41,266 nt of DNA from a virus (lineage: Duplodnaviria > Heunggongvirae > Uroviricota > Caudoviricetes), in IMG/VR virus record IMGVR_UViG_2534681675_000019, one strand, 5' to 3'. The notes below the pieces were generated by a model. It saw only the letters and a program-made list of their open reading frames with translations, had not been told where the DNA came from and ran no database searches. Below are positions 1,260 to 38,183 of this stretch, piece after piece. Both the position numbers and the translations under genes were made by a program. The first letter of the stretch is position 1, and every line of letters starts with the position of its first letter.

Positions 1260-1919
1260 CTATCCTTCCTGGACTTTGGTAAGCGTCAGATTTCCGCAGA
1301 ACACTGCGCCGGTGTCGATGTACATTTGGTTTGCATACACCAGTGGGTGATGTGCTGGCGTATGACCGAAGATGAACAAATCGGCACCGGTTATCTCCGA
1401 GACAATACCGTCCTGCGCGTCGCTAACCCGCTCACGATTCCATATCACCATTTCTTCCGGTACTGGCTTATCGAATGCGTATTCGTTGTGCGGGTAGTCT
1501 GCGTGGCAGATGACGACCTTCTTATTGCCGGTAACCAGTTCGATAATCATCGGGAGGTTGGTAACCTTTGGCAGAAGGTATTTGAGTTGCACATCCTGCT
1601 CAGAATCAAGTTGGTGCCACCATCCACCGCCGTTTGACATCCAATGTCCGAAACTTCCGCCGTTGACCAGTGCATCCAGCATCATCTGCTCATGGTTGCC
1701 ACGAACAGCTCGGAACCACGGCATAGTAATCAAATCCAGGCATTCGACGTTTTCAGCGCCGCGGTCAACAAGGTCACCAACGGAAATAAGCAAATCGCGC
1801 GCCGGGTCGAATGAAACTTTGTCGAGTTCGTTCATCAGCAGCGTGTAGCACCCATGCAGATCTCCGACGACGAAGATATTGCACCAGTCAGCGCCATTGA
1901 TGCGTTGATATAGGTTCAT
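1260..1919 (-). CDS. Ser/Thr protein phosphatase, PPP family (lambda-PPase/PrpA-like metallophosphatase)
   Basis: Motifs GDLHG, GDLVDRG and GNHE seen in the translation. Start placed at internal ATG 1919 (MNLYQRING...), which overlaps the stop of the upstream methylase; the ORF track extends to 2039. Confidence 0.8.
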
Positions 1920-2566
1920 GCTGCACGCTCCCGCCCCTGGTTGTCTGTTGGTGACAGCGGAGCATTGCTGAATGCATTTGTTAATCCGCCAATATCCAAC
2001 GCGTATCCAGGATGTAGTTGCACTGCCGGGTCTTCGCACTGATTACCCCAAACATCGAAACCATGAGACGACTGGCGGGCGAACAGTTCAATGCGAGAAA
2101 CATCGCCTAACAATTGCACAAGTTTTTCACGAACGACATCTGGTTTTCTTGAATGCTCAAGCCGCGGTGCGGTAAATGACTGAACGATCCCTGCATTAAT
2201 GCGTGGAGGTAGTTTTCCCTTTACTGCAAACAGGCAATCTTCACTATTGGCGCGAGTCATGTGTCCCATACCCATAACCAGTTTATCTGGTTGTCGACTA
2301 CCACATTTTATCCACGTGAAGCCCTTCATGGTCATCAGACGGAATCCCCAGGCTTCAACAACTTTTAGTGCTTCGAGTGGTTGTGTTGGCACCCACCACA
2401 TGGCCAACAGACAGTTTTCATCGGCCAAATCCCACACAGGAAGGCGGCAAATATCCAGCACACTCATAACCGGATATTTAAAACCGGCACCGCGATTACC
2501 ATCCGCGGCTTTGTCCCGGTATACCCAGGGTGGATCTGCATAGATTAGTGTGTATTTCTTAGTCAT
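1916..2566 (-). CDS. MT-A70 family DNA N6-adenine methyltransferase (orphan phage methylase)
   Basis: DPPW motif ([10 protein letters not shown]) near the N-terminus. ATG at 2566; alternative GTG at 2578. Stop overlaps the phosphatase start. Confidence 0.8.
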
Positions 2567-2858
2567 AAACCACCCCACAACATCCTATGCCGCTATAGTC
2601 GCCACGGCGAAGGCCGTTACCTTTTGTGATACATTGGTCCCTGCGAACCGCGATCCTTGCACGCTCAACATCACCAGAAGCAACATCCATACACTGAAGC
2701 CAAAGGTGGGCGGCAATGCGGAACTGCCCTTTTTTCTCTCTTTCAATCGCGCGTTTTTCGATCTCTATCGCCGCAGGAGTAACGGCAACAACCTTTGAAT
2801 GGCTGCGCATTGAAACCTTGTTCATGTGATATTTTTCAAGTCGGCTTAACTTTCTCAC
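2559..2858 (-). CDS. Hypothetical phage protein
   Basis: 99-aa ORF with GTG start at 2858 preceded by a GAGGG Shine-Dalgarno; same strand and tight spacing with the leftward operon. No family recognised. Confidence 0.4.
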   Translation of the reverse strand: MRKLSRLEKYHMNKVSMRSHSKVVAVTPAAIEIEKRAIEREKKGQFRIAAHLWLQCMDVASGDVERARIAVRRDQCITKGNGLRRGDYSGIGCCGVVYD

Positions 2859-2967
2859 TTAATCCAACCCTCTCTGAAAATTAATGCCAGCAGATAAAGC
2901 CATGCTGAAACAGAGGCCAGGAATAAGTACCATCCTGACCATTTGCTCCAGTGCCTTAGCAGCACAC

Positions 2968-3216
2968 TCATGCCGCGTTGCTCACAGGACGATATACACG
3001 TTGCTGAACAGGAGGTTTTTTACCCTGGAACTCTGCCGGGCTTGCTGCCTGACGTTCATCAAGCCAACGCTCAACTTCATCACGGTTCCATGCGCAGCGT
3101 TTGTCAGTGATATACCAGCGTTTAGGAAATTCCCCTGCGCGCTCCATACGGTCGATAGTGCTCCATGACAGTGGCACCACCGCCAGGAGTTCCTTCTTAC
3201 CTAATGCACCTTTCAT
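2968..3216 (-). CDS. AlpA-family DNA-binding protein (excisionase/regulator candidate)
   Basis: 82 aa; LSWSTIDRMERAGEFPKRWYIT...WNRDEVERWL resembles the AlpA/Xis-type helix-turn-helix; sits in the integrase-proximal early region. Confidence 0.6.
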   Translation of the reverse strand: MKGALGKKELLAVVPLSWSTIDRMERAGEFPKRWYITDKRCAWNRDEVERWLDERQAASPAEFQGKKPPVQQRVYRPVSNAA

Positions 3217-3265
3217 AAATACCTCTCTTGGTTGCAGTGCGGCGCGCGTGGCGCCGCGGTGGTGG

Positions 3266-4147
3266 TTACATAGATGTTTCGTTTAATTCTTCCCGACGAG
3301 CGCTGTAAACGTCGGTGGCTTTTGCCAGCAGTTCGTCATCATCTGAAAGTTTTTGTGCAATGTATTTGTAAGCCTTATCCAGTTCGGAGACAGTGCTGTA
3401 ATTCATCGCTGCGCTGGTAAAGGCCATCAGCATTTCTTCTGGATCACGGCTATCCGCTTTACGCGTTTGCTCATCATGCTTTTTCGCTGGTTTAGCGTTG
3501 ATCAGACTGTTCATTCCCGCAGCAGTAGTCGTTTGTGGAGTAATGTCTCGCTCAACGCGCGGTGCCGTTTCCTGTAATTCGTCAGGGGTGTAAACACCGA
3601 GAAGCACATCAGGAGCGTGCAGGCGAGCCCATCGTTTCGTGCAAAGATAGGCAAGCTGCTGGCGCGGATCCTGTTCCCACAATGGAGAGTTACGCACTCC
3701 GGCTTGCGCCATACTGATGGTAAGCTCACGGGGTTCTGCTTCTCCTTTAAGAACTGCTGACACAGTTACCGTCAGATTCGGTGATTTATCTGTTTTGCCG
3801 TTAACATTCGACCAGTCACCGCTCCAGCGATAATTCAGGCGTGTCGCCAGCAGGCTGGAAGAGGATACGACCGCGTTTACCAACTGTGCTTCGTAGCCTA
3901 ACGTTCCGTTTACCACATGCGTTTTCTGCGCCACGGCGAAAGGGTTCATTCCCCACTGTGCCGCCTGCATGGTCACCGCCAGGCAATCGGCAGGTTTGCC
4001 TTCAAGATGTTTCGGTACAGTCGCTTTGCTTTGTGACATCAACTCCGCGAAACGCACCAGTTGATTCATGCCCTCGGGGCTGAAGATTGCCGCAGCAGTG
4101 CCTACAGTTGCGCCTGGTTGTGATGTGATTGCGATATCATTGCTCAT
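3266..4147 (-). CDS. ssDNA-annealing recombinase, Bet/RecT-like
   Basis: 293 aa; ERDITP block and overall resemblance to Bet/RecT proteins (from memory); start overlaps the stop of the upstream exonuclease (ATGA), the classic exo-annealase pairing. Confidence 0.6.
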   Translation of the reverse strand: MSNDIAITSQPGATVGTAAAIFSPEGMNQLVRFAELMSQSKATVPKHLEGKPADCLAVTMQAAQWGMNPFAVAQKTHVVNGTLGYEAQLVNAVVSSSSLLATRLNYRWSGDWSNVNGKTDKSPNLTVTVSAVLKGEAEPRELTISMAQAGVRNSPLWEQDPRQQLAYLCTKRWARLHAPDVLLGVYTPDELQETAPRVERDITPQTTTAAGMNSLINAKPAKKHDEQTRKADSRDPEEMLMAFTSAAMNYSTVSELDKAYKYIAQKLSDDDELLAKATDVYSARREELNETSM

Positions 4148-4965
4148 ACGTACATATCCTGTTTACGTGCCCAGTCAGGGCGTTTAATAATTTCCACTCC
4201 GCCCCATTCATCGTTGATGCGGCATTCGTGATAGGTATTCAGATCCCGGCGGAACAGAGCGTGCCCGGCATCGACATCCGGCGCATCCAGCTCGAACACG
4301 CGTACCGGATACCGACCACAATCAATGCTTTCGCTCACGGCAAGAAAGAAAAAACCATGCGGCTGACCAGTAACCCTCATTGCGCCTTCGCGGTACATTG
4401 CGTCCTGCACGTGGTAGCGGAATTCCTCGATGTGGCGTGCAAAACGGTCCATATCTGCAACCTTTTTCACGTCGACGATCACGTTGTGCTCGTTCAGCCA
4501 TTTGTCTGGACGAATTCGGCACAACTCACCCGTATCTTCATCGTTCCAGTACATTGATGCTTCGCAGTAACCAGGTGCTTCCAACATCCAGCGTGCCGCC
4601 GGGTGAGCCATTGCGCTATCACGCATCAGCTCCAGTTTCCGCCACTGCTCGGCATCAAGTACAGTAATCCCCATATCCGCCACATCACGAAGAAATGCAT
4701 CTTCGTCAGCTTTACCTTGTTTCGTCCGACGATCGAATTTCGGCGAAACAATGAAGCGTTTGTCGAACTCTCCAGGCTCCAGAAGCAGACAGTGCAATGC
4801 GGTTCCCATATCCAGTGCAGACTTTTTCTCTTCGTCTTCTGGTGCTGCCTGAACCCATTTAAGAAGCGCCGGATTCTTGGCAACCATGTCCAGTTGCGAC
4901 TTACTCACGCCGTCCCCGGCGTGGTAGTCTTCGTTGCTGATGTCGAAATAAATTCCCGGTTTCAT
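4144..4965 (-). CDS. Phage exonuclease, PD-(D/E)XK-type partner of the annealase
   Basis: 273 aa, translationally coupled upstream of the Bet/RecT-like gene; acidic/aromatic blocks consistent with YqaJ/RecE-like nuclease folds. Assignment is mainly by synteny. Confidence 0.5.
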   Translation of the reverse strand: MKPGIYFDISNEDYHAGDGVSKSQLDMVAKNPALLKWVQAAPEDEEKKSALDMGTALHCLLLEPGEFDKRFIVSPKFDRRTKQGKADEDAFLRDVADMGITVLDAEQWRKLELMRDSAMAHPAARWMLEAPGYCEASMYWNDEDTGELCRIRPDKWLNEHNVIVDVKKVADMDRFARHIEEFRYHVQDAMYREGAMRVTGQPHGFFFLAVSESIDCGRYPVRVFELDAPDVDAGHALFRRDLNTYHECRINDEWGGVEIIKRPDWARKQDMYV

Positions 4966-5569: not shown

Positions 5570-6154
5570 TTATTGTTTGTTTTTTTCGTTCTGGTTGATG
5601 ACAAATTCAATGTAACTTTCGATCTTTGCTTTCTCGGTTTCAGGTAACAATGCGTAGCGCGAGCGGTCATAGTTGATAGTTGCAGGATCGTGCGGGTGAA
5701 TCAGTAGTTCATATCCGTGACGCCCGAATGCAGATGCAACATTCTCCAGGGTGGAAATGGAAACGCTGACCTCATTGTTTAACAGGCGGCTGATTGTCAC
5801 CTGGGCGACGCCGGATGCGCGGTGAAGTTTTCCCTGTGTTGAAAGGTCGCGGCTTTCGCTCATCCAGCGTTCCAGGTTGTGAGCCGCTAGCTGACCAATG
5901 TCGCTTGGGCCGACAGGCTGAAAACCTTCCTGAGAAAGCGAGCGATCGATATCAAGCCAGTTACGGGGTTTATTGGCGGCAGCTTCAATTTTTCGCGCAA
6001 CCTGGTCGCCGATAACCTTCTTGCCAAGAGCCCAGCGGTTTACCAGATTTGCCTGAGTTCCAAGTTTTTCTGCCATCCGCGTCTGAACACCATTGAATTC
6101 ACGGTCGATCAAGTCGTTGAGATTTTGCCTGCGGACGTCCTGGATACTTTTCAT
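5570..6154 (-). CDS. Prophage repressor, CI-like, tandem HTH, no peptidase S24 domain
   Basis: 194 aa; two XRE-type HTH segments (QTRMAEKLGTQANLVNRW and ASGVAQVTISRLLNNE); divergent from a Cro-like gene across an operator-rich spacer; no Ala-Gly/Ser-Lys autocleavage module visible. Confidence 0.7.
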   Translation of the reverse strand: MKSIQDVRRQNLNDLIDREFNGVQTRMAEKLGTQANLVNRWALGKKVIGDQVARKIEAAANKPRNWLDIDRSLSQEGFQPVGPSDIGQLAAHNLERWMSESRDLSTQGKLHRASGVAQVTISRLLNNEVSVSISTLENVASAFGRHGYELLIHPHDPATINYDRSRYALLPETEKAKIESYIEFVINQNEKNKQ

Positions 6155-31637: not shown

Positions 31638-32051
31638 ATGAAGGAATTATTGCTGTTATCGGTATTTTTGATATCCGCTTGCTCGACATCCTATGATGTT
31701 TATGACGGTGTTGATAAGGCATATTGCGACAAGGTTAAAATGGATTTTTCTCTTGCCAAGACGGCGAAGGATAGTTGTATTGATCACTACGTCAAGACTT
31801 ATACCAAGTCAGCATCATCGGCATCTGATATTGCTGAAGGTGCTGTGTTTGAGTGTAACAAGGTGATATCCATCGCAGCGAGTTCTTCATACGATGCTGC
31901 TGTATGTGCAATGGCTGAAAGAAACGGCATGTCTGTGCAAAAAGTTAATAGCATGATAAACAGTAATGACGAAGCCAAAATAAGAACTGATATCAGCTCG
32001 GTGAAAAAAGATGCCATGAACAGAGTTGTAAAATATCAGTCATCTTTATAA
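31638..32051 (+). CDS. Lipoprotein (signal peptide with lipobox LISAC)
   Basis: 137 aa; MKELLLLSVFLISAC; AAGGAA Shine-Dalgarno; last gene of the late operon before a terminator. Confidence 0.6.
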   Translation: MKELLLLSVFLISACSTSYDVYDGVDKAYCDKVKMDFSLAKTAKDSCIDHYVKTYTKSASSASDIAEGAVFECNKVISIAASSSYDAAVCAMAERNGMSVQKVNSMINSNDEAKIRTDISSVKKDAMNRVVKYQSSL

Positions 32052-32543: not shown

Positions 32544-34796
32544 ATGACGGTCTCAACCGAAGTTGACCACAACGAATACACAGGCAATGGCGTTACGACT
32601 TCATTCCCTTATACCTTTAGGGTTTTCAAGGAATCTGATCTGGTAGTGCAGGTGGTTGACCTTGACGAAAATATCGCTGTGCTGGCTCTTGATACTGATT
32701 ACACTGTCACTGGGGCTGGTGGATATAACGGCGGTAATGTAATTCTGTCGAAGGCGTTAGCTAACGGTTACCAGATTTCTATATCACGAGAGCTCCCGGT
32801 TACGCAGGAAACTGATTTGCGTAATCAGGGGAAGTTCTTTGCAGAAGTGCATGAGGATGCTTTTGATAAGCTAACGATGCTGATCCAGCAGGTTCGAAGT
32901 TGGTTTAGCTTGGCGCTGCGCAAGCCGTCATTCGTAGCAAATTATTATAACGCGCTGAACAACTATATTCGGAACCTGAAAGACCCGGTTAACCCGCAGG
33001 ATGCAGCCACAAAGAATTATGTGGACAGCACGGCTTTATCGAACATCAACCATACCATCCGAGTTCCTGACGCTTATATCGATCCGCTGCCACCACTCGC
33101 TCAGCTTGAAGGCAGCATTATCGGCATTCAAAACGGGAAGCCTGTTCCTTTCCCTGTGCCTTCAGGAACGGCGGCGGACGTATTCAACCAGTTGGCCAGC
33201 AGCGCTGACGGGAAAGGTGATGCGCTGATAACAGTGAAGCAGCCTTACCAGGGGGCAACTTCTCTTTCGCAGCATATAAAAAATGCACAGGCTATAAGTG
33301 TTGTTGATTTTGGAGCGACAATTGATGGATCTCTCCACCCTTTAAGTGAAGTTTTCTCAACACTCTCAGCGGCACAGATGGTATATCCATTTGTTACGTC
33401 TCTCACGCAATCGTTGGATTATGCGGCGCTGCAGGCCGCATGTAATACTGGTAAAAAGGTGCTAATCCCAAAAGGTCTTGGATATTATAATGCCACAATT
33501 ATATTTAATAATTCAGTCAGAATTGTTGGTGAAGGGACTGATGCAATAAACCGTTCTCAGTCTTTCATGTCAATTGTTGGGAATATATCAGCCTTCGCAT
33601 TAGCTCAGGGTAGCTCAACATCAACGAAAATGATCCAGATTTTCATTGATGGCCTTTATATCTTTTATAACCCTGGCTCTACCCCAACAAACTCATCAAC
33701 AGACGGCGGCAAGGTAGCTTTTAATTTCTACTCAACAGTCCCTAATTCTACTGGGCTGGAAATGTCAGAAATTAAAAATTGTACAGTTCATGGGGCGTGG
33801 TCGTGCTTTAATGACCAGACAGGAACCTATCTTACAAAGCTTACGAATGTGTGGGCCAGGAACTGTCATAATGGTTTTACCAAAGGAACTGGCACAACAA
33901 TCCTTCTGGAAAGATGTTATGCATCTGGTTGTATTTCTCCTTACCAGTTTGGTTCTGTCTTCGCGGTTACAATGATTAACTGCGCGATGGATGGATCAAA
34001 TATTTCATTAAGCGCCGGGACGCTTGGAGGGGCTGGAGTTCACATCCTTAACACGCACAGTTTCAATATTATTGGCTTTGATGCAGAGGGAAACACCATC
34101 TCTACGGATGGAGCTGGAGAAGCTGCGCTGTTCCATTTTGAGAATAGTAGTGGTGGCTTATCCGGGCTTACCGCACATCAGAACAGCATGCGAAGTGTTG
34201 CGCCAAGTGATGCTGGTGTAGTTTCCTACATCAGGGCGTCAGGTAGCAGCGATGTTAAAATTGAGTCATCAGAAGATGATTTATCTGACACCAACCCAGT
34301 TGCATATACTGGGTCTGGGTATCCCATTATGTTACATGCAATAGACACAGCTAAAATAAGTGTCTTTAATAGCCGGTTCAGAGCAACCACTACAGGAACT
34401 CCTGTTTTAAGTACGCTAAGTACTGGTGATGTATCATGGTATGACTGCCCTAAAAAAACAGGACTTATCGCCAATGGTTACTCGCAGACTACATCTCAGG
34501 AAGGGTTGCAAACATCATGCTTCTCTACCAGTAAAGGCTCTACTTCTGTGGCTGCAAATACCCCGACAACACTTTTTTCTCTGCCAAATTCTCAAGGCAC
34601 TTACATTATCAGCGTTTGGGGATCTGGTAGTGGGACAAACTATGCGTCAACGCAGTTAGCAATGTATGATGGAACTTTGTATCTTACGGCATTGAAAGCT
34701 GCAGCGTTCCTGACATTTACTGTAACCGGAAGAATAGTAACCCTGACGAGCCAGGGGGCTGGAACTTTTAGTTGGACTTACACGAAAATAGGTTAA
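32544..34796 (+). CDS. Tailspike/tail fiber with T7 gp17-like N-terminal adaptor domain
   Basis: 750 aa; N-terminal YTGNGVTTSFPYTF...TDYTV...RELPVTQETDL...AEVHEDAFDKL parallels the T7 gp17 N-terminus (from memory); the C-terminal two-thirds is visibly AT-rich and Ser/Thr/Gly/Asn-rich, consistent with a receptor-binding module. Confidence 0.7.
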   Translation: MTVSTEVDHNEYTGNGVTTSFPYTFRVFKESDLVVQVVDLDENIAVLALDTDYTVTGAGGYNGGNVILSKALANGYQISISRELPVTQETDLRNQGKFFAEVHEDAFDKLTMLIQQVRSWFSLALRKPSFVANYYNALNNYIRNLKDPVNPQDAATKNYVDSTALSNINHTIRVPDAYIDPLPPLAQLEGSIIGIQNGKPVPFPVPSGTAADVFNQLASSADGKGDALITVKQPYQGATSLSQHIKNAQAISVVDFGATIDGSLHPLSEVFSTLSAAQMVYPFVTSLTQSLDYAALQAACNTGKKVLIPKGLGYYNATIIFNNSVRIVGEGTDAINRSQSFMSIVGNISAFALAQGSSTSTKMIQIFIDGLYIFYNPGSTPTNSSTDGGKVAFNFYSTVPNSTGLEMSEIKNCTVHGAWSCFNDQTGTYLTKLTNVWARNCHNGFTKGTGTTILLERCYASGCISPYQFGSVFAVTMINCAMDGSNISLSAGTLGGAGVHILNTHSFNIIGFDAEGNTISTDGAGEAALFHFENSSGGLSGLTAHQNSMRSVAPSDAGVVSYIRASGSSDVKIESSEDDLSDTNPVAYTGSGYPIMLHAIDTAKISVFNSRFRATTTGTPVLSTLSTGDVSWYDCPKKTGLIANGYSQTTSQEGLQTSCFSTSKGSTSVAANTPTTLFSLPNSQGTYIISVWGSGSGTNYASTQLAMYDGTLYLTALKAAAFLTFTVTGRIVTLTSQGAGTFSWTYTKIG

Positions 34797-35104
34797 TGTT
34801 ATTTTAGGGGAGCGATGCTCCCCATCATCAATTAAAAAATAAACTGTCCATCATTTTTTAGTTTTTTACCAAACTCCCTTGAGCCTTCCAGAGTGAAATG
34901 GCTATTGTCAAAGTAAAGATAATCACCTTTCTTTGATAGAATGTCACAATTCATAGCCTTTCCGCACTGCTCGGCAAGCGTATCTATGTATTTATACGAA
35001 TGCTGGTTGCTACTAGACTGGCCCCCTGAATCTCCAGACAACCAGTATCACTTAAATAAGTGATAGTCTTAATACTAGTTTTTAGACTAGTCATTGGAGA
35101 ACAG

Positions 35105-35470
35105 ATGATTGATGTCTTAGGGCCGGAGAAACGCAGACGGCGTACCACACAGGAAAAGATCGCAATTGTTCAGCAGAGCTTTGAACCGGGGATGACGGTC
35201 TCCCTCGTTGCCCGGCAACATGGTGTAGCAGCCAGCCAGTTATTTCTCTGGCGTAAGCAATACCAGGAAGGAAGTCTTACTGCTGTCGCCGCCGGAGAAC
35301 AGGTTGTTCCTGCCTCTGAACTTGCTGCCGCCATGAAGCAGATTAAAGAACTCCAGCGCCTGCTCGGCAAGAAAACGATGGAAAATGAACTCCTCAAAGA
35401 AGCCGTTGAATATGGACGGGCAAAAAAGTGGATAGCGCACGCGCCCTTATTGCCCGGGGATGGGGAGTAA
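35105..35470 (+). CDS. insC: IS2 transposase OrfA (InsC)
   Basis: 121 aa, [24 protein letters not shown]...; HTH; ends just past the AAAAAAG frameshift site. Confidence 0.85.
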
Positions 35471-36333
35471 GCTTAGTCAGCCGTTGTCTCCGGGTGTCGC
35501 GTGCGCAGTTGCACGTCATTCTCAGACGAACCGATGACTGGATGGATGGCCGCCGCAGTCGTCACACTGATGATACGGATGTGCTTCTCCGTATACACCA
35601 TGTTATCGGAGAGCTGCCCACGTATGGTTATCGTCGGGTATGGGCGCTGCTTCGCAGACAGGCAGAACTTGATGGTATGCCTGCGATCAATGCCAAACGT
35701 GTTTACCGGATCATGCGCCAGAATGCGCTGTTGCTTGAGCGAAAACCTGCTGTACCGCCATCGAAACGGGCACATACAGGCAGAGTGGCCGTGAAAGAAA
35801 GCAATCAGCGATGGTGCTCTGACGGGTTCGAGTTCTGCTGTGATAACGGAGAGAGACTGCGTGTCACGTTCGCGCTGGACTGCTGTGATCGTGAGGCACT
35901 GCACTGGGCGGTCACTACCGGCGGCTTCAACAGTGAAACAGTACAGGACGTCATGCTGGGAGCGGTGGAACGCCGCTTCGGCAACGATCTTCCGTCGTCT
36001 CCAGTGGAGTGGCTGACGGATAATGGTTCATGCTACCGGGCTAATGAAACACGCCAGTTCGCCCGGATGTTGGGACTTGAACCGAAGAACACGGCGGTGC
36101 GGAGTCCGGAGAGTAACGGAATAGCAGAGAGCTTCGTGAAAACGATAAAGCGTGACTACATCAGTATCATGCCCAAACCAGACGGGTTAACGGCAGCAAA
36201 GAACCTTGCAGAGGCGTTCGAGCATTATAACGAATGGCATCCGCATAGTGCGCTGGGTTATCGCTCGCCACGGGAATATCTGCGGCAGCGGGCTTGTAAT
36301 GGGTTAAGTGATAACAGATGTCTGGAAATATAG
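35428..36333 (+). CDS. insD: IS2 transposase OrfB (InsD), DDE catalytic domain
   Basis: 301 aa, [30 protein letters not shown]...; overlaps orfA in the -1 frame at AAAAAAG (35422-35428). Confidence 0.85.
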
Positions 36334-38063
36334 GGGCAAATCCAGCTACCAAGATAGCCTTTTATCGTATTGTTAATTTCAACTCTACTATTGTCATAAT
36401 ACTTTTTAGAGTATTTATTTATCCCATCAATTGTGTTTACGCCAGATTTAAAAGCAGACTTAATTATTTCCATTGGCTGTGCCGTAAACTTCATCTTAGG
36501 CCCAAATACAATAACTTCTCCTTTAGTCCTCTCCTGTATTTTGCCTATAGAGTAAAGCATCCCGAACAGATCGCCAACGCCATAATCATCATGAAGGATT
36601 ATAATGTTAGCTTCAGCTATGGCTGGAGATGAGATCACGTCATTGAATATTTTTTTGCACTTTTCTACATAGGGCATGTCGTTTGGTGTATAACCAAAGT
36701 TTGAACATAAGTTTGTAGTTCTTATATAAGTTATATCACCCTTCATCCCATTTTCAGTAAGTGCATAAGTCAGATCTATGCCATGAGAATTACCGATTAT
36801 TACTATTTTTTTGTCACCTGTCTTCGGTACAGGGTGAGGCTTGTCTCCATCAACCCAATACCTGTTCATTTGTTCTTTTAGCTGTTCGGACGTCATTGTG
36901 GCAAACGAAAACCTTGATGGAATTCCAGATAGCAATAGTACAGCGAAGCACAAACCAACTACACCACCTACAGGTAGCACGATTGAAGTTAATTCATTCA
37001 AGGACCTGCCGTTTTTAAATTTTGAAAGTGCCTTTCTTGAAGGGTTTTCAATTAAATAAAATGATGCGGCACCAATAAGAATTGATAAGGCAACACCTGA
37101 TACTGTATAAACCATATCATCCATCTTATTCATTGACATATAGACAACTATGGGCCAGTGAACCAGATATACCGAGTATGAAATTTTCCCAACCCATTGA
37201 GATAATGCATTATCAAGTAACAGGTTATCTTTACATCCAAGATAAATGACAAAGAAAGTAGAAACGACTGGTATTAAGGCAAGATACCCAGGCCACTTCA
37301 TTAAGCTGTTAAGCAAGACTATCCCCGATACTGCAAAGGCTATGGCAATCCATCTAAATACAGCAGTGCGTTTTGAATTTTGTATAGTAGGAAGAAGGTA
37401 GGCAAGGCCGCCAGCCAGCATCTCCCAAGCTCTGCTTGACAGAAGATAAAATGCAGCCCCCTGATTATTATAAGAAAGATACACTGAGGCAGTAAATGAT
37501 ATAATTGCAAGGATGGCAACAACATACCTTATATGCTTAGCGCCCAATAGCTTTGCAATTGCCATCATTATGATTGGATATACCATGTAAAACTGCCACT
37601 CTACAGAAAGCGACCATGTATGAAGAAGCCATTTCTGCTTTGATGCAGTGTCAAAATAATCAATGCTATGGTAATACTCAACGTTTGAGAAAAATAAAAG
37701 GCTACTTCTTACGTGTTGAGCCAGGTATTCATATTCAGAAGGCAAAAGAATGAAGTAACCAACTATCAGAACAGCAACTGAAACTACAGTTAAAGCTGGT
37801 ATAATCCTTCTTGCCCTATCAAGATAAAATCCTAACAGTGAAAAGTTTCCATTAGATATCTTTGTGTAAATTATTCCAGTCATCAGATACCCTGATATAA
37901 CAAAGAATATATCTACGCCTGAAAACCCACCAGAAAACCCTTTGACTCCGAAGTGATAAAGGACAACTGCCATGACAGCAATAGCCCTGAGTCCGCCTAT
38001 ATCAGTTCTGTATTTTAAAGAAGACATAATCGCTATCGTTTTGAGTAAGATGCGTTAATGATA

Positions 38064-38078
38064 TCACCTTTAGGGTAA
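38064..38078. promoter_or_regulatory. TCACC-N5-GGTAA site in the divergent region between the acyltransferase and the lysis genes
   Basis: TCACCtttagGGTAAT. Confidence 0.45.
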
Positions 38079-38183
38079 TTTCGTTAAGAGTTATCCGATC
38101 AAAATTAATCCACATATGGTTTATTGTGTATGATGAACTCACCAACTAAGGGGGTTCTTTATGCACAATAAACGGTGGTCACT

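Follow-up and report, generated by a model that had tools for sequence, protein, structure and literature searches.

Our analysis indicates that IS2 has very probably knocked out the O-antigen-type AT3-SGNH acetyltransferase of a phiV10-like prophage, leaving an enzyme that is most likely inactive and a lysogen that most likely lacks the acetylation this enzyme would provide. The gene lies in a 41,266-nt stretch of viral DNA (hereafter the window), and all positions are counted from its first nucleotide. By analogy with characterized enzymes, we infer the acceptor (O-antigen), the inactivity of the present product and the resulting phenotype. The insertion is made up of the following features:

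35014-36344, + strand: complete IS2, whose transposase genes run in the opposite direction to the acyltransferase (comparison with K-12 IS2A)
35105-35470, + strand: IS2 orfA (insC), 121 aa (HTH_Tnp_1; identical to K-12 InsC1)
35428-36333, + strand: IS2 orfB (insD), 301 aa, with the DDE/rve catalytic domain (rve, rve_3, HTH_21; identical to K-12 InsD1)
35009-35013: left GCTAC copy of the target-site duplication (one GCTAC in the empty site of L001)
36345-36349: right GCTAC copy of the target-site duplication (K-12 IS2A also has a 5-bp duplication)

All coordinates of the 1331-bp element and of the two GCTAC copies between which it lies were confirmed. This copy matches IS2A of K-12 MG1655 at 1329 of 1331 nt, termini included, and is 99.3-99.8% identical to IS2-annotated copies among the matches listed. 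Its length of ~1331 bp and its ends (TAGACTGG... at one, ...CAAATCCA at the other) are those of IS2, and its InsC and InsD proteins do not differ from those of K-12. Pfam places HTH_Tnp_1 in InsC and rve, rve_3 and HTH_21 in InsD, and an A6G -1 frameshift site at 35422-35428 joins the overlapping orfA and orfB. The preliminary description of this DNA, which had called the element a complete IS2 and the perfect GCTAC repeat its target duplication, thus holds: the element is two nucleotides away from K-12 IS2A with identical transposase proteins, and both repeat copies lie where it had placed them. K-12 IS2A is likewise flanked by a 5-bp duplication, ATTAC.

The acyltransferase gene is now divided as follows:

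36345-38027, - strand: 5' part of the acyltransferase, native codons 1-561, comprising the AT3 membrane domain (aa 10-319), TMH11 and linker, and SGNH as far as helix 546-559; it holds Ser414 (codon 36786-36788) and Cys441/Cys457 (Pfam; conserved residues; AlphaFold model of P0001)
36258-38027, - strand: ORF as now encoded, 589 aa, with its stop codon within IS2 (ORF translation; in databases as WP_024166204.1, on one contig only)
34832-35013, - strand: severed 3' remnant, restored codons 560/561-619 plus stop, with Cys576, Cys582, Asp595 (34907-34909), His598 (34898-34900) and the C-terminal helix (excision; alignment; AlphaFold)

In silico deletion of 35014-36349 produced a continuous, in-frame ORF of 1860 nt encoding 619 aa, in which Pfam recognizes both an Acyl_transf_3 domain (PF01757, E=2.8e-31, aa 10-319) and an SGNH domain (PF19040, E=8.6e-13, aa 402-611), as the preliminary description had anticipated. 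The restored protein is the same as an intact E. coli protein (P0127) at 619 of 619 residues, and the excised junction reproduces the unoccupied site of E. coli MFDS1019527 (L001), in which GCTAC occurs once, at 100 of 100 nt. Because the odds of a 5-bp match at the exact ends of an insertion sequence are ~1/1024, and because the empty-site junction and the restored protein match completely, chance is excluded as the source of this pattern.

IS2 entered directly after codon 561, and the present ORF consists of these 561 native residues followed by 28 aa translated from the antisense strand of the right IS2 end, the composition that had been proposed. As had also been proposed, the insertion falls between the GNSH block (residues 412-415) and the DNSH block (residues 595-598). 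Ser414 is retained, while Cys576, Cys582, Asp595 and His598 are cut off, so that two of the three catalytic residues of the enzyme are removed. Alignments of 38 and 73 sequences show no variation at S414, D595 and H598, and the four cysteines C441, C457, C576 and C582 are either invariant or conserved to at least 90%; D595 and H598 align with the DxxH motif of OafA and OafB, bearing out the claim that the product lacks the catalytic His and Asp. A complete Ser-Asp-His triad (block I GxS, block V DxxH) is thus present in the 619-aa allele and missing from the protein encoded in the window. The public gene call for the remnant has a weak PF19040 SGNH match. In the structural model of P0001 described below, the truncation is predicted to remove a core strand, the last β-strand of the SGNH fold, together with the C-terminal helix. 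The window gene is therefore a disrupted member of the AT3-SGNH family, that is, a pseudogene. In OafA, triad substitutions leave little activity (S412A 0.36%, D587A 10%, H590A 0.87%; PMC7448272), and fused AT3-SGNH enzymes cannot do without their SGNH domain (PMC9558356). Because OafA triad mutants lose activity, the truncated enzyme is most likely inactive.

To place the uninterrupted protein among solved structures, we used an AlphaFold model of P0001 (619 aa, 99% identical to the restored protein; pLDDT 93.3) as a stand-in for the restored sequence. In this model a helix at 342-365 follows the AT3 core and leads into an alpha/beta domain, consistent with a predicted topology in which an eleventh transmembrane helix and a linker put SGNH in the periplasm. 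The best Foldseek match of the model was 6SE1, the periplasmic domain of OafB (E=7.3e-5, probability 1.00, TMt 0.60). A single-sequence phmmer search of the PDB with the restored protein returned no match at E<=1, and 6SE1 could be reached by sequence only with a profile built from the alignment of 38 homologues (E=1.9e-14); here GNS lies opposite GDS and DxxH opposite DxxH. Nearly all of the homologues among the 120 matches listed are 600-680 aa long with both domains, and D595 and H598 are invariant among homologues; the natural ends of these proteins thus do not fall near the insertion point. Their names are generic ('acyltransferase family protein', 'OafA/YrhL'), none with an experimental basis among the matches listed.

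The closest characterized relatives in architecture are Salmonella OafA and OafB (GtrC family II; gtrC of prophage BTP1), which have the same two-domain AT3-SGNH organization. The window protein shares with OafA the motifs R14/H25, GG-F-xGVD, RxxR and the glutamate after TMH10; the residues essential to the OafA AT3 domain (R14, H25, G34, F35, D39, RxxR, S112, E325) correspond here to R14, H25, G34, F35, D39, R71/R74, S114 and E327. R14, H25, R71 and R74 are conserved or invariant in the homologue alignment, and the domain carries both R/K-X10-H and RxxR. The triads lie at 414/595/598 and 412/587/590, and the cysteine pairs at 441-457/576-582 and 439-453/567-572, in the window protein and OafA, respectively. 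Because the essential AT3 residues of OafA have conserved counterparts, the gene appears to have been functional in design before the insertion. Like the window gene, oafB of BTP1 is prophage-borne, and its product protects against the tailspike of its own phage. Unlike OafA and OafB, the window protein belongs to another host species, has ~30% identity to Salmonella phage homologues over partial lengths, and is encoded by a gene that has been inactivated by an insertion sequence rather than switched epigenetically. The Dam/OxyR phase-variation signature found upstream of gtr and oafB was not detected in 38028-38174, which contains a single GATC, and we rejected phase variation by this route on that ground.

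The prophage that carries the gene is a full-length phiV10-like element (Uetakevirus) integrated beside yfgI/yfgH in E. coli GCA_000194175.2. Prophage and phiV10 are collinear, with 95-98% nt identity; all core genes of the prophage are full length, and its repressor and the phiV10 repressor are 100% identical. The acyltransferase sits between the tailspike and the holin, convergent with the tailspike, and the same layout occurs in L001 and L005. Its neighbouring features are:

32544-34796, + strand: tailspike, convergent with the acyltransferase; residues 1-220 form a phiV10/epsilon15-type head-binding domain and residues 212-750 a different receptor-binding domain (PHROG tail families)
34807-34823: stem-loop GGGGAGC-GAT-GCTCCCC between the two convergent stop codons (read from the sequence)
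38058-38087, - strand: candidate sigma-70 promoter, TTAACG-18-TATCAT with TG, upstream of the acyltransferase ATG (consensus match only)

The tailspike has 75% identity to phiV10 over residues 1-220 and ~52% identity to siphophage tailspikes over residues 212-750. Its receptor-binding part and the acyltransferase form one low-GC module (33022-38057) that has been swapped together. The stem-loop is a possible bidirectional terminator; having no T tract, it was missed by our consensus scan. As the promoter and terminator sites found by that scan were no more numerous than expected from shuffled sequence, the promoter assignment is tentative. We also considered a polar effect of IS2 and rejected it, as the acyltransferase is last in its transcription unit and convergent with the tailspike, which leaves no gene beyond it that could be silenced. 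Transcription leaving IS2 in the direction of the lysis genes would need to traverse 1.7 kb of antisense gene.

The gene order in phiV10 (tail fibre on the + strand, oac on the - strand, holin) agrees with the earlier claim that this gene class adjoins the tailspike in temperate podoviruses. PhiV10 Oac (PhiV10p26, YP_512280.1) is an O157-antigen O-acetyltransferase and superinfection-immunity protein, annotated as one that 'acetylates the host O-antigen; functions in superinfection immunity' (PMC11854483, PMC9558356). The window gene resembles phiV10 oac in its slot and orientation, between tail fibre and holin on the opposite strand, in encoding a protein of the AT3 family (PMC9558356), and in its probable role, lysogenic conversion of the receptor of the tailspike. 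However, phiV10 Oac is an AT3-only protein of 338 aa, whereas the window protein has 619 aa and both AT3 and SGNH domains, and a tblastn search of the window with phiV10 Oac found no match at E<=1e-5. The window gene thus shares its slot and function class with phiV10 oac without being its orthologue. Since the receptor-binding domain of the tailspike differs from that of phiV10, a different O-antigen is expected, and, unlike phiV10 oac, the window copy is broken by IS2.

Among public assemblies we found the insertion in GCA_000194175.2 only, and the 5,426 complete E. coli genomes searched all lack it; 7,625 records in 4,863 of these genomes matched the query, in nearly every case by way of the IS2 portion. 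When GTDB representative genomes were searched for an exact match to a 40-nt sequence of the left junction, none was found either, a result of little weight with one genome per species. On the basis of its restriction to one public assembly, we conclude that the insertion is recent and strain-specific; the intact IS2 and clean duplication had led the preliminary description to the same view of its age. A megablast search of 50,697 phage records with the acyltransferase gene found no match, and the gene is absent at the DNA level from sequenced phages; its protein relatives in phages have at most 30% identity over their full length. We found nothing relevant in the literature on AEZI..., GCA_000194175, MFDS1019527, FT130 or the WP_ numbers.

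Taken together, these data are best explained by a model in which a phiV10-like temperate podovirus carries, as low-GC cargo, a gene for a 619-aa acyltransferase made of AT3 and a periplasmic SGNH domain. As in other proteins of this class, the AT3 domain would carry the acetyl group of cytoplasmic acetyl-CoA through the inner membrane, and the Ser-His-Asp triad of SGNH would then move it onto an O-antigen sugar. Acetylation would alter the receptor of the phage's own tailspike, resulting in seroconversion and superinfection exclusion. An intact IS2 has transposed into codon 561 with its usual 5-bp duplication, and the product, with a nonsense tail in place of one Cys pair, Asp595, His598, the last β-strand and the C-terminal helix, keeps Ser414 of the triad. 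The lysogen would then most likely be without O-antigen acetylation by the prophage gene, in line with the loss of modification that the preliminary description had proposed. This model assumes that the gene is expressed in the lysogen, and the promoter match is weak.

We weighed this model against other readings of the same data. The source, AEZI02000018.1, is a draft assembly and IS2 is multicopy in E. coli, two facts that would fit a repeat misplaced during assembly. Yet both junctions are exact IS2 termini with a 5-bp duplication whose sequence occurs just once in the empty site, target duplications are not produced by mis-assembly, and a 1.25-Mb contig runs through both junctions, so we give an artefact next to no credence. 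The truncated protein might instead keep useful activity, with its AT3 domain acetylating the acceptor alone and IS2 changing little. The same phage lineage has AT3-only O-antigen acetyltransferases such as phiV10 Oac; the Tyrion and PAS61 acetylases match aa 5-318 only (45-48% identity); the stand-alone AT3 proteins Sf6 Oac and phiV10 Oac work without SGNH; and AT3 domains are able to function alone according to a review (PMC9558356). That review, however, also describes SGNH as essential in AT3-SGNH proteins, and fused enzymes such as OafA need the triad, as the H590A and S412A variants demonstrate (PMC7448272). R14 and GG-F-xGVD, motifs specific to fused AT3-SGNH proteins, mark the AT3 domain here as SGNH-dependent, and loss of a core strand and the terminal helix would likely misfold the periplasmic domain. 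Residual activity is thus very unlikely.

A different acceptor is unlikely as well, by a somewhat smaller measure. If the enzyme modified peptidoglycan, enterobacterial common antigen or capsule, its loss would be unrelated to seroconversion or to the receptor; the AT3-SGNH family does have many acceptors, including peptidoglycan, capsules and lipo-oligosaccharide (PMC9558356), and the generic database names offer no experimental guide. Against this, the gene occupies the exact slot of phiV10 oac and was swapped with the receptor-binding part of the tailspike, the solved structure closest to its own is that of the O-antigen acetyltransferase OafB, and the phage relatives found are annotated as O-antigen acetylases. 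O-antigen therefore remains our preferred acceptor. We also asked if loss of the acetyltransferase was selected for, rather than accidental, in a tug-of-war between lysogen and phage. In the same 90%-identity protein cluster, other E. coli isolates have at least two further lesions of independent origin: one allele stops after codon 456, and another is broken at codons 288-301, where contigs also end. The intact gene occurs in only two complete genomes, both times within a degraded prophage, and the full-length prophage analysed here has a broken gene. Under selection, a host whose phage had died would keep the acetyltransferase, now domesticated as a means of defence or an antigenic trait, and lysogens of a live phage would gain by O-antigen reversion. 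We regard this proposal as doubtful, if a little less so than a different acceptor.

The event itself is ordinary pseudogenization, by an insertion sequence, of a known gene class in one strain. In K-12, yaiX::IS2A (b4579; insC1/insD1) presents the same element, with a 5-bp duplication, splitting a putative acyltransferase gene in two; yaiX lies elsewhere, on the chromosome, and has no evident tie to the family of the window gene; the parallel is coincidental and illustrates how routine such events are. In public databases, both the 589-aa chimera (WP_024166204.1) and a remnant of 69 aa pass for genuine proteins, a small annotation error. For the strain, the O-antigen is probably without prophage acetylation, which could change serological fine-typing, and the cell could adsorb phages with the same tailspike; as the repressor is identical to that of phiV10, repressor immunity would still protect it. 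For phiV10-like phages more broadly, the AT3-SGNH gene and the receptor-binding domain of the tailspike form a clear recognition and modification module that is exchanged as a unit, which is not new in principle and is useful for predicting phage host range.

The minus-strand acyltransferase gene of this prophage is interrupted at 35014-36344 by a 1331-bp element that begins with TAGACTGGCC, ends with GGCAAATCCA and is flanked by the 5-bp repeat GCTAC (35009-35013 and 36345-36349), at the coordinates given in the preliminary description. Base-for-base alignment with the IS2A annotated in E. coli K-12 MG1655 shows mismatches at 2 of 1331 positions, confirming the element's earlier assignment to IS2. 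Its InsC (121 aa) and InsD (301 aa) proteins, in which Pfam detects HTH_Tnp_1 and rve/rve_3 domains, respectively, are identical to those of K-12, and its A6G frameshift site lies at 35422. As the K-12 IS2A is also flanked by a 5-bp duplication (ATTAC), a duplication of this length is what IS2 makes. That K-12 copy (L004, the yaiX::IS2A locus, 1345-3373) interrupts yaiX, annotated as a putative acyltransferase; its likeness to the window case is coincidental. IS2 is ubiquitous in E. coli, and an IS2-containing query found matches in 4,863 of the 5,426 complete E. coli genomes, almost always via its IS2 part.

Deletion of 35014-36349 in silico joins the two minus-strand pieces of the gene into a continuous ORF of 1860 nt encoding 619 aa, as had been predicted. 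All 100 bp spanning the healed junction match the empty site of E. coli MFDS1019527, which has a single GCTAC and an acyltransferase gene (1860 nt) 98.1% identical to that of the window. All 619 residues of the restored protein are identical to those of P0127, an intact protein of other E. coli isolates. From these junction and protein controls, we conclude that the excised form is the true ancestral state. Because both flanks of IS2 are otherwise unchanged and the element itself is intact, the insertion is recent, in agreement with the earlier suggestion. It is also rare; all 5,426 complete E. coli genomes lack it, two of them carrying the intact gene, and the resulting 589-aa chimeric product is recorded on a single contig (AEZI02000018.1, assembly GCA_000194175.2, the source of the window). 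This fusion (36258-38027, minus strand) appears in public databases under WP_024166204.1 as an ordinary 'acyltransferase family protein', and the 69-aa remnant (34832-35041, minus strand) as a separate gene, with no pseudogene flag on either product in the gene calls retrieved.

The restored protein contains an Acyl_transf_3 (AT3) membrane domain (Pfam, aa 10-319, E=2.8e-31) and a C-terminal periplasmic SGNH domain (PF19040, SGNH fused to AT3 domains; aa 402-611, E=8.6e-13). Homologues do not terminate around the insertion site: at E<=1e-10 a protein database search gave 7,970 scoring proteins, and nearly all of the 120 matches listed are 600-680 aa long with both domains. Two homologue alignments (38 and 73 sequences, down to ~33% identity) show G412, S414, C457, D595 and H598 of the periplasmic domain to be invariant in each. 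Of the other cysteines, C441 is invariant among the 38 sequences and has at least 90% conservation among the 73, while C576 and C582 reach at least 90% in each alignment. The alignment profile matches the crystal structure of the periplasmic domain of Salmonella OafB, an AT3-SGNH O-antigen acetyltransferase (PDB 6SE1; E=1.9e-14), with IIGdS opposite IIGDS and yfDssH opposite AVDWGH. The same structure is the best match among solved structures (probability 1.00, TMt 0.60) to the confident AlphaFold model (pLDDT 93.3, pTM 0.84) of P0001, a protein 99% identical to the restored one. The residues of the related OafA that correspond closely to the catalytic and cysteine positions are as follows.

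Catalytic residues and conserved cysteine pairs of the window protein and OafA
Catalytic triad: window protein S414 / D595 / H598; OafA S412 / D587 / H590
Conserved Cys pairs: window protein 441-457 and 576-582; OafA 439-453 and 567-572

The AT3 residues essential in OafA (R14, H25, G34, F35, D39, R69/R72, S112 and E325) also have conserved counterparts in the window protein (R14, H25, G34, F35, D39, R71/R74, S114 and E327). All the features expected of a functional AT3-SGNH acetyltransferase were present in the gene before IS2 inserted.

IS2 lies after codon 561, and the current product consists, as described previously, of 561 native residues followed by a 28-residue tail, an antisense read of the IS2 right end. 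In this product the AT3 domain and the eleventh helix remain, as does most of the SGNH domain with the nucleophile S414. Mapped on the P0001 model, the missing parts are strand 567-569, helix 571-576 carrying the second cysteine pair, the D595-x-x-H598 block and terminal helix 601-614. As the D595-x-x-H598 block lies beyond codon 561, the catalytic His and Asp are gone, as the preliminary description had proposed. O-antigen acetylation falls to 0.87%, 0.36% and 10% in the OafA mutants H590A, S412A and D587A, respectively (PMC7448272). The remnant ORF lacks an export signal of its own and cannot plausibly complement the loss. Given the weakness of the OafA triad mutants and the implausibility of complementation, loss of acyltransferase function is very probably the outcome.

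The window is essentially one prophage, with the integrase start codon at one end and yfgI/yfgH at the other. Over almost its full length it aligns collinearly with Escherichia phage phiV10 (genus Uetakevirus), at 95-98% nucleotide identity, and it has full-length counterparts for every phiV10 core gene (terminase, portal, capsid, tail, internal virion proteins, lysis, replication and integrase); IS2 aside, the prophage looks intact. The repressor protein (5573-6154, minus strand) is 100% identical to that of phiV10 (p40), from which we would expect repression to make the lysogen immune to phiV10-type phages even if its receptor is not modified. Besides the large segment described below, three segments not common with phiV10 lie at 1260-2039 (minus strand), 9174-11713 and 31638-32051 (plus strand). 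A NinI-like Ser/Thr phosphatase takes the place of phiV10 p32, the part of the early region around phiV10 p46-p53 has diverged or been replaced, and a 137-aa ORF (phrog_8691, a PHROG without assigned function) stands where phiV10 has p21-p23, including a Bro-N antirepressor-like gene. The recombination genes (3266-4965, minus strand) form two overlapping ORFs of 273 aa and 293 aa; the phiV10 annotation instead has one 586-aa RecE-RecT fusion, of which the best HSP spans aa 1-268 only. A tRNA-Arg (anticodon TCT; 15176-15252, minus strand; ARAGORN; Rfam 73.3 bits) lies between the terminase and portal genes, and tRNA-Arg is annotated in related O157 typing phages too.

The largest segment unmatched in phiV10 (33022-38057, no nucleotide match) comprises the receptor-binding part of the tailspike (aa ~160-750; the C-terminal 530 residues) and the acyltransferase, with G+C of 0.44 and 0.37 compared to ~0.50 in the backbone. 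The tailspike is a mosaic: its residues 1-220 share 75% identity with the head-binding domain of phiV10, and its residues 212-750 share ~52% with tailspike/lateral-fibre proteins of unrelated siphophages (SU57, JeanPiccard and RobRod40). Receptor recognition and receptor modification seem to have been exchanged as a unit. The 35-bp gap between the convergent tailspike and acyltransferase stops contains a perfect 7-bp stem-loop, GGGGAGC-GAT-GCTCCCC (34807-34823), a possible bidirectional terminator; it has no T tract, and a terminator consensus scan did not report it.

Previously, it had been proposed that this gene class sits beside the tailspike and modifies the O-antigen. Both features hold as in phiV10 oac, which occupies the same slot, is annotated 'acetylates the host O-antigen; functions in superinfection immunity' and, when expressed, renders O157:H7 refractory to phiV10 (PMC11854483; PMC9558356). 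The correction concerns descent. phiV10 Oac is a 338-aa, AT3-only protein, whereas the window gene encodes AT3 plus SGNH, and a tblastn search of the window with phiV10 Oac gave no match at E<=1e-5. The window gene is a probable functional analogue of phiV10 oac, sharing its slot and broad family, but it is not an orthologue. By architecture it groups with OafA and OafB, among them the OafB (GtrC) carried by prophage BTP1, which shields Salmonella from the tailspike of that phage (PMC9558356). We saw no sign of regulated switching for the window gene; it has a single GATC upstream, in contrast to the gtr/oafB operons, which are under Dam/OxyR control.

We consider it likely that a recent IS2 transposition knocked out a receptor-modifying lysogenic-conversion gene. 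An acceptor other than the O-antigen is unlikely, given that the gene occupies the slot of phiV10 oac, appears co-swapped with the tailspike receptor-binding domain and has OafB as its nearest structural relative. Residual activity of the truncated enzyme is quite improbable, as OafA triad mutants lose activity and part of the fold is removed here. That the IS2 copy is an assembly artefact is barely credible, since mis-assembly cannot create a target duplication. None of the components is new: IS2, the AT3-SGNH family, the conversion slot next to the tailspike in epsilon15/phiV10-like phages and the inactivation of genes by IS elements are all known. What the knock-out adds is an instance only, an uncharacterised AT3-SGNH member in Uetakevirus with a disrupted allele in one strain.

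Further, independently broken alleles from other E. coli isolates occur in the 90%-identity cluster of P0001. P0130 (456 aa, aa 1-456) and P0126 (a 156-aa piece, aa 465-619) are adjacent genes with adjacent accession numbers, implying a stop after codon 456. P0129 (a 288-aa partial, aa 1-288, that stops where its contig does) and P0131 (a 318-aa piece, aa 302-619) place a break at codons 288-301. Breaks that coincide with contig ends are typical of IS elements, and this one suggests another IS. P0128 is a 233-aa C-terminal piece covering aa 387-619 only.

The intact gene was found in two complete E. coli genomes only, each time within a degraded prophage that also sits at yfgI. MFDS1019527 (L001, 1-3175) has a p20-like virion gene truncated by another IS2, and FT130 (L005, 1-1100) lacks the replication-to-terminase block, its repressor region leading straight into the portal gene. 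The full-length window prophage has the gene broken, whereas these degraded prophages have it intact, a pattern that, with three genomes and a few fragments, is an anecdote. The broken alleles can be read in two ways, as the result of selection or of ordinary prophage decay.
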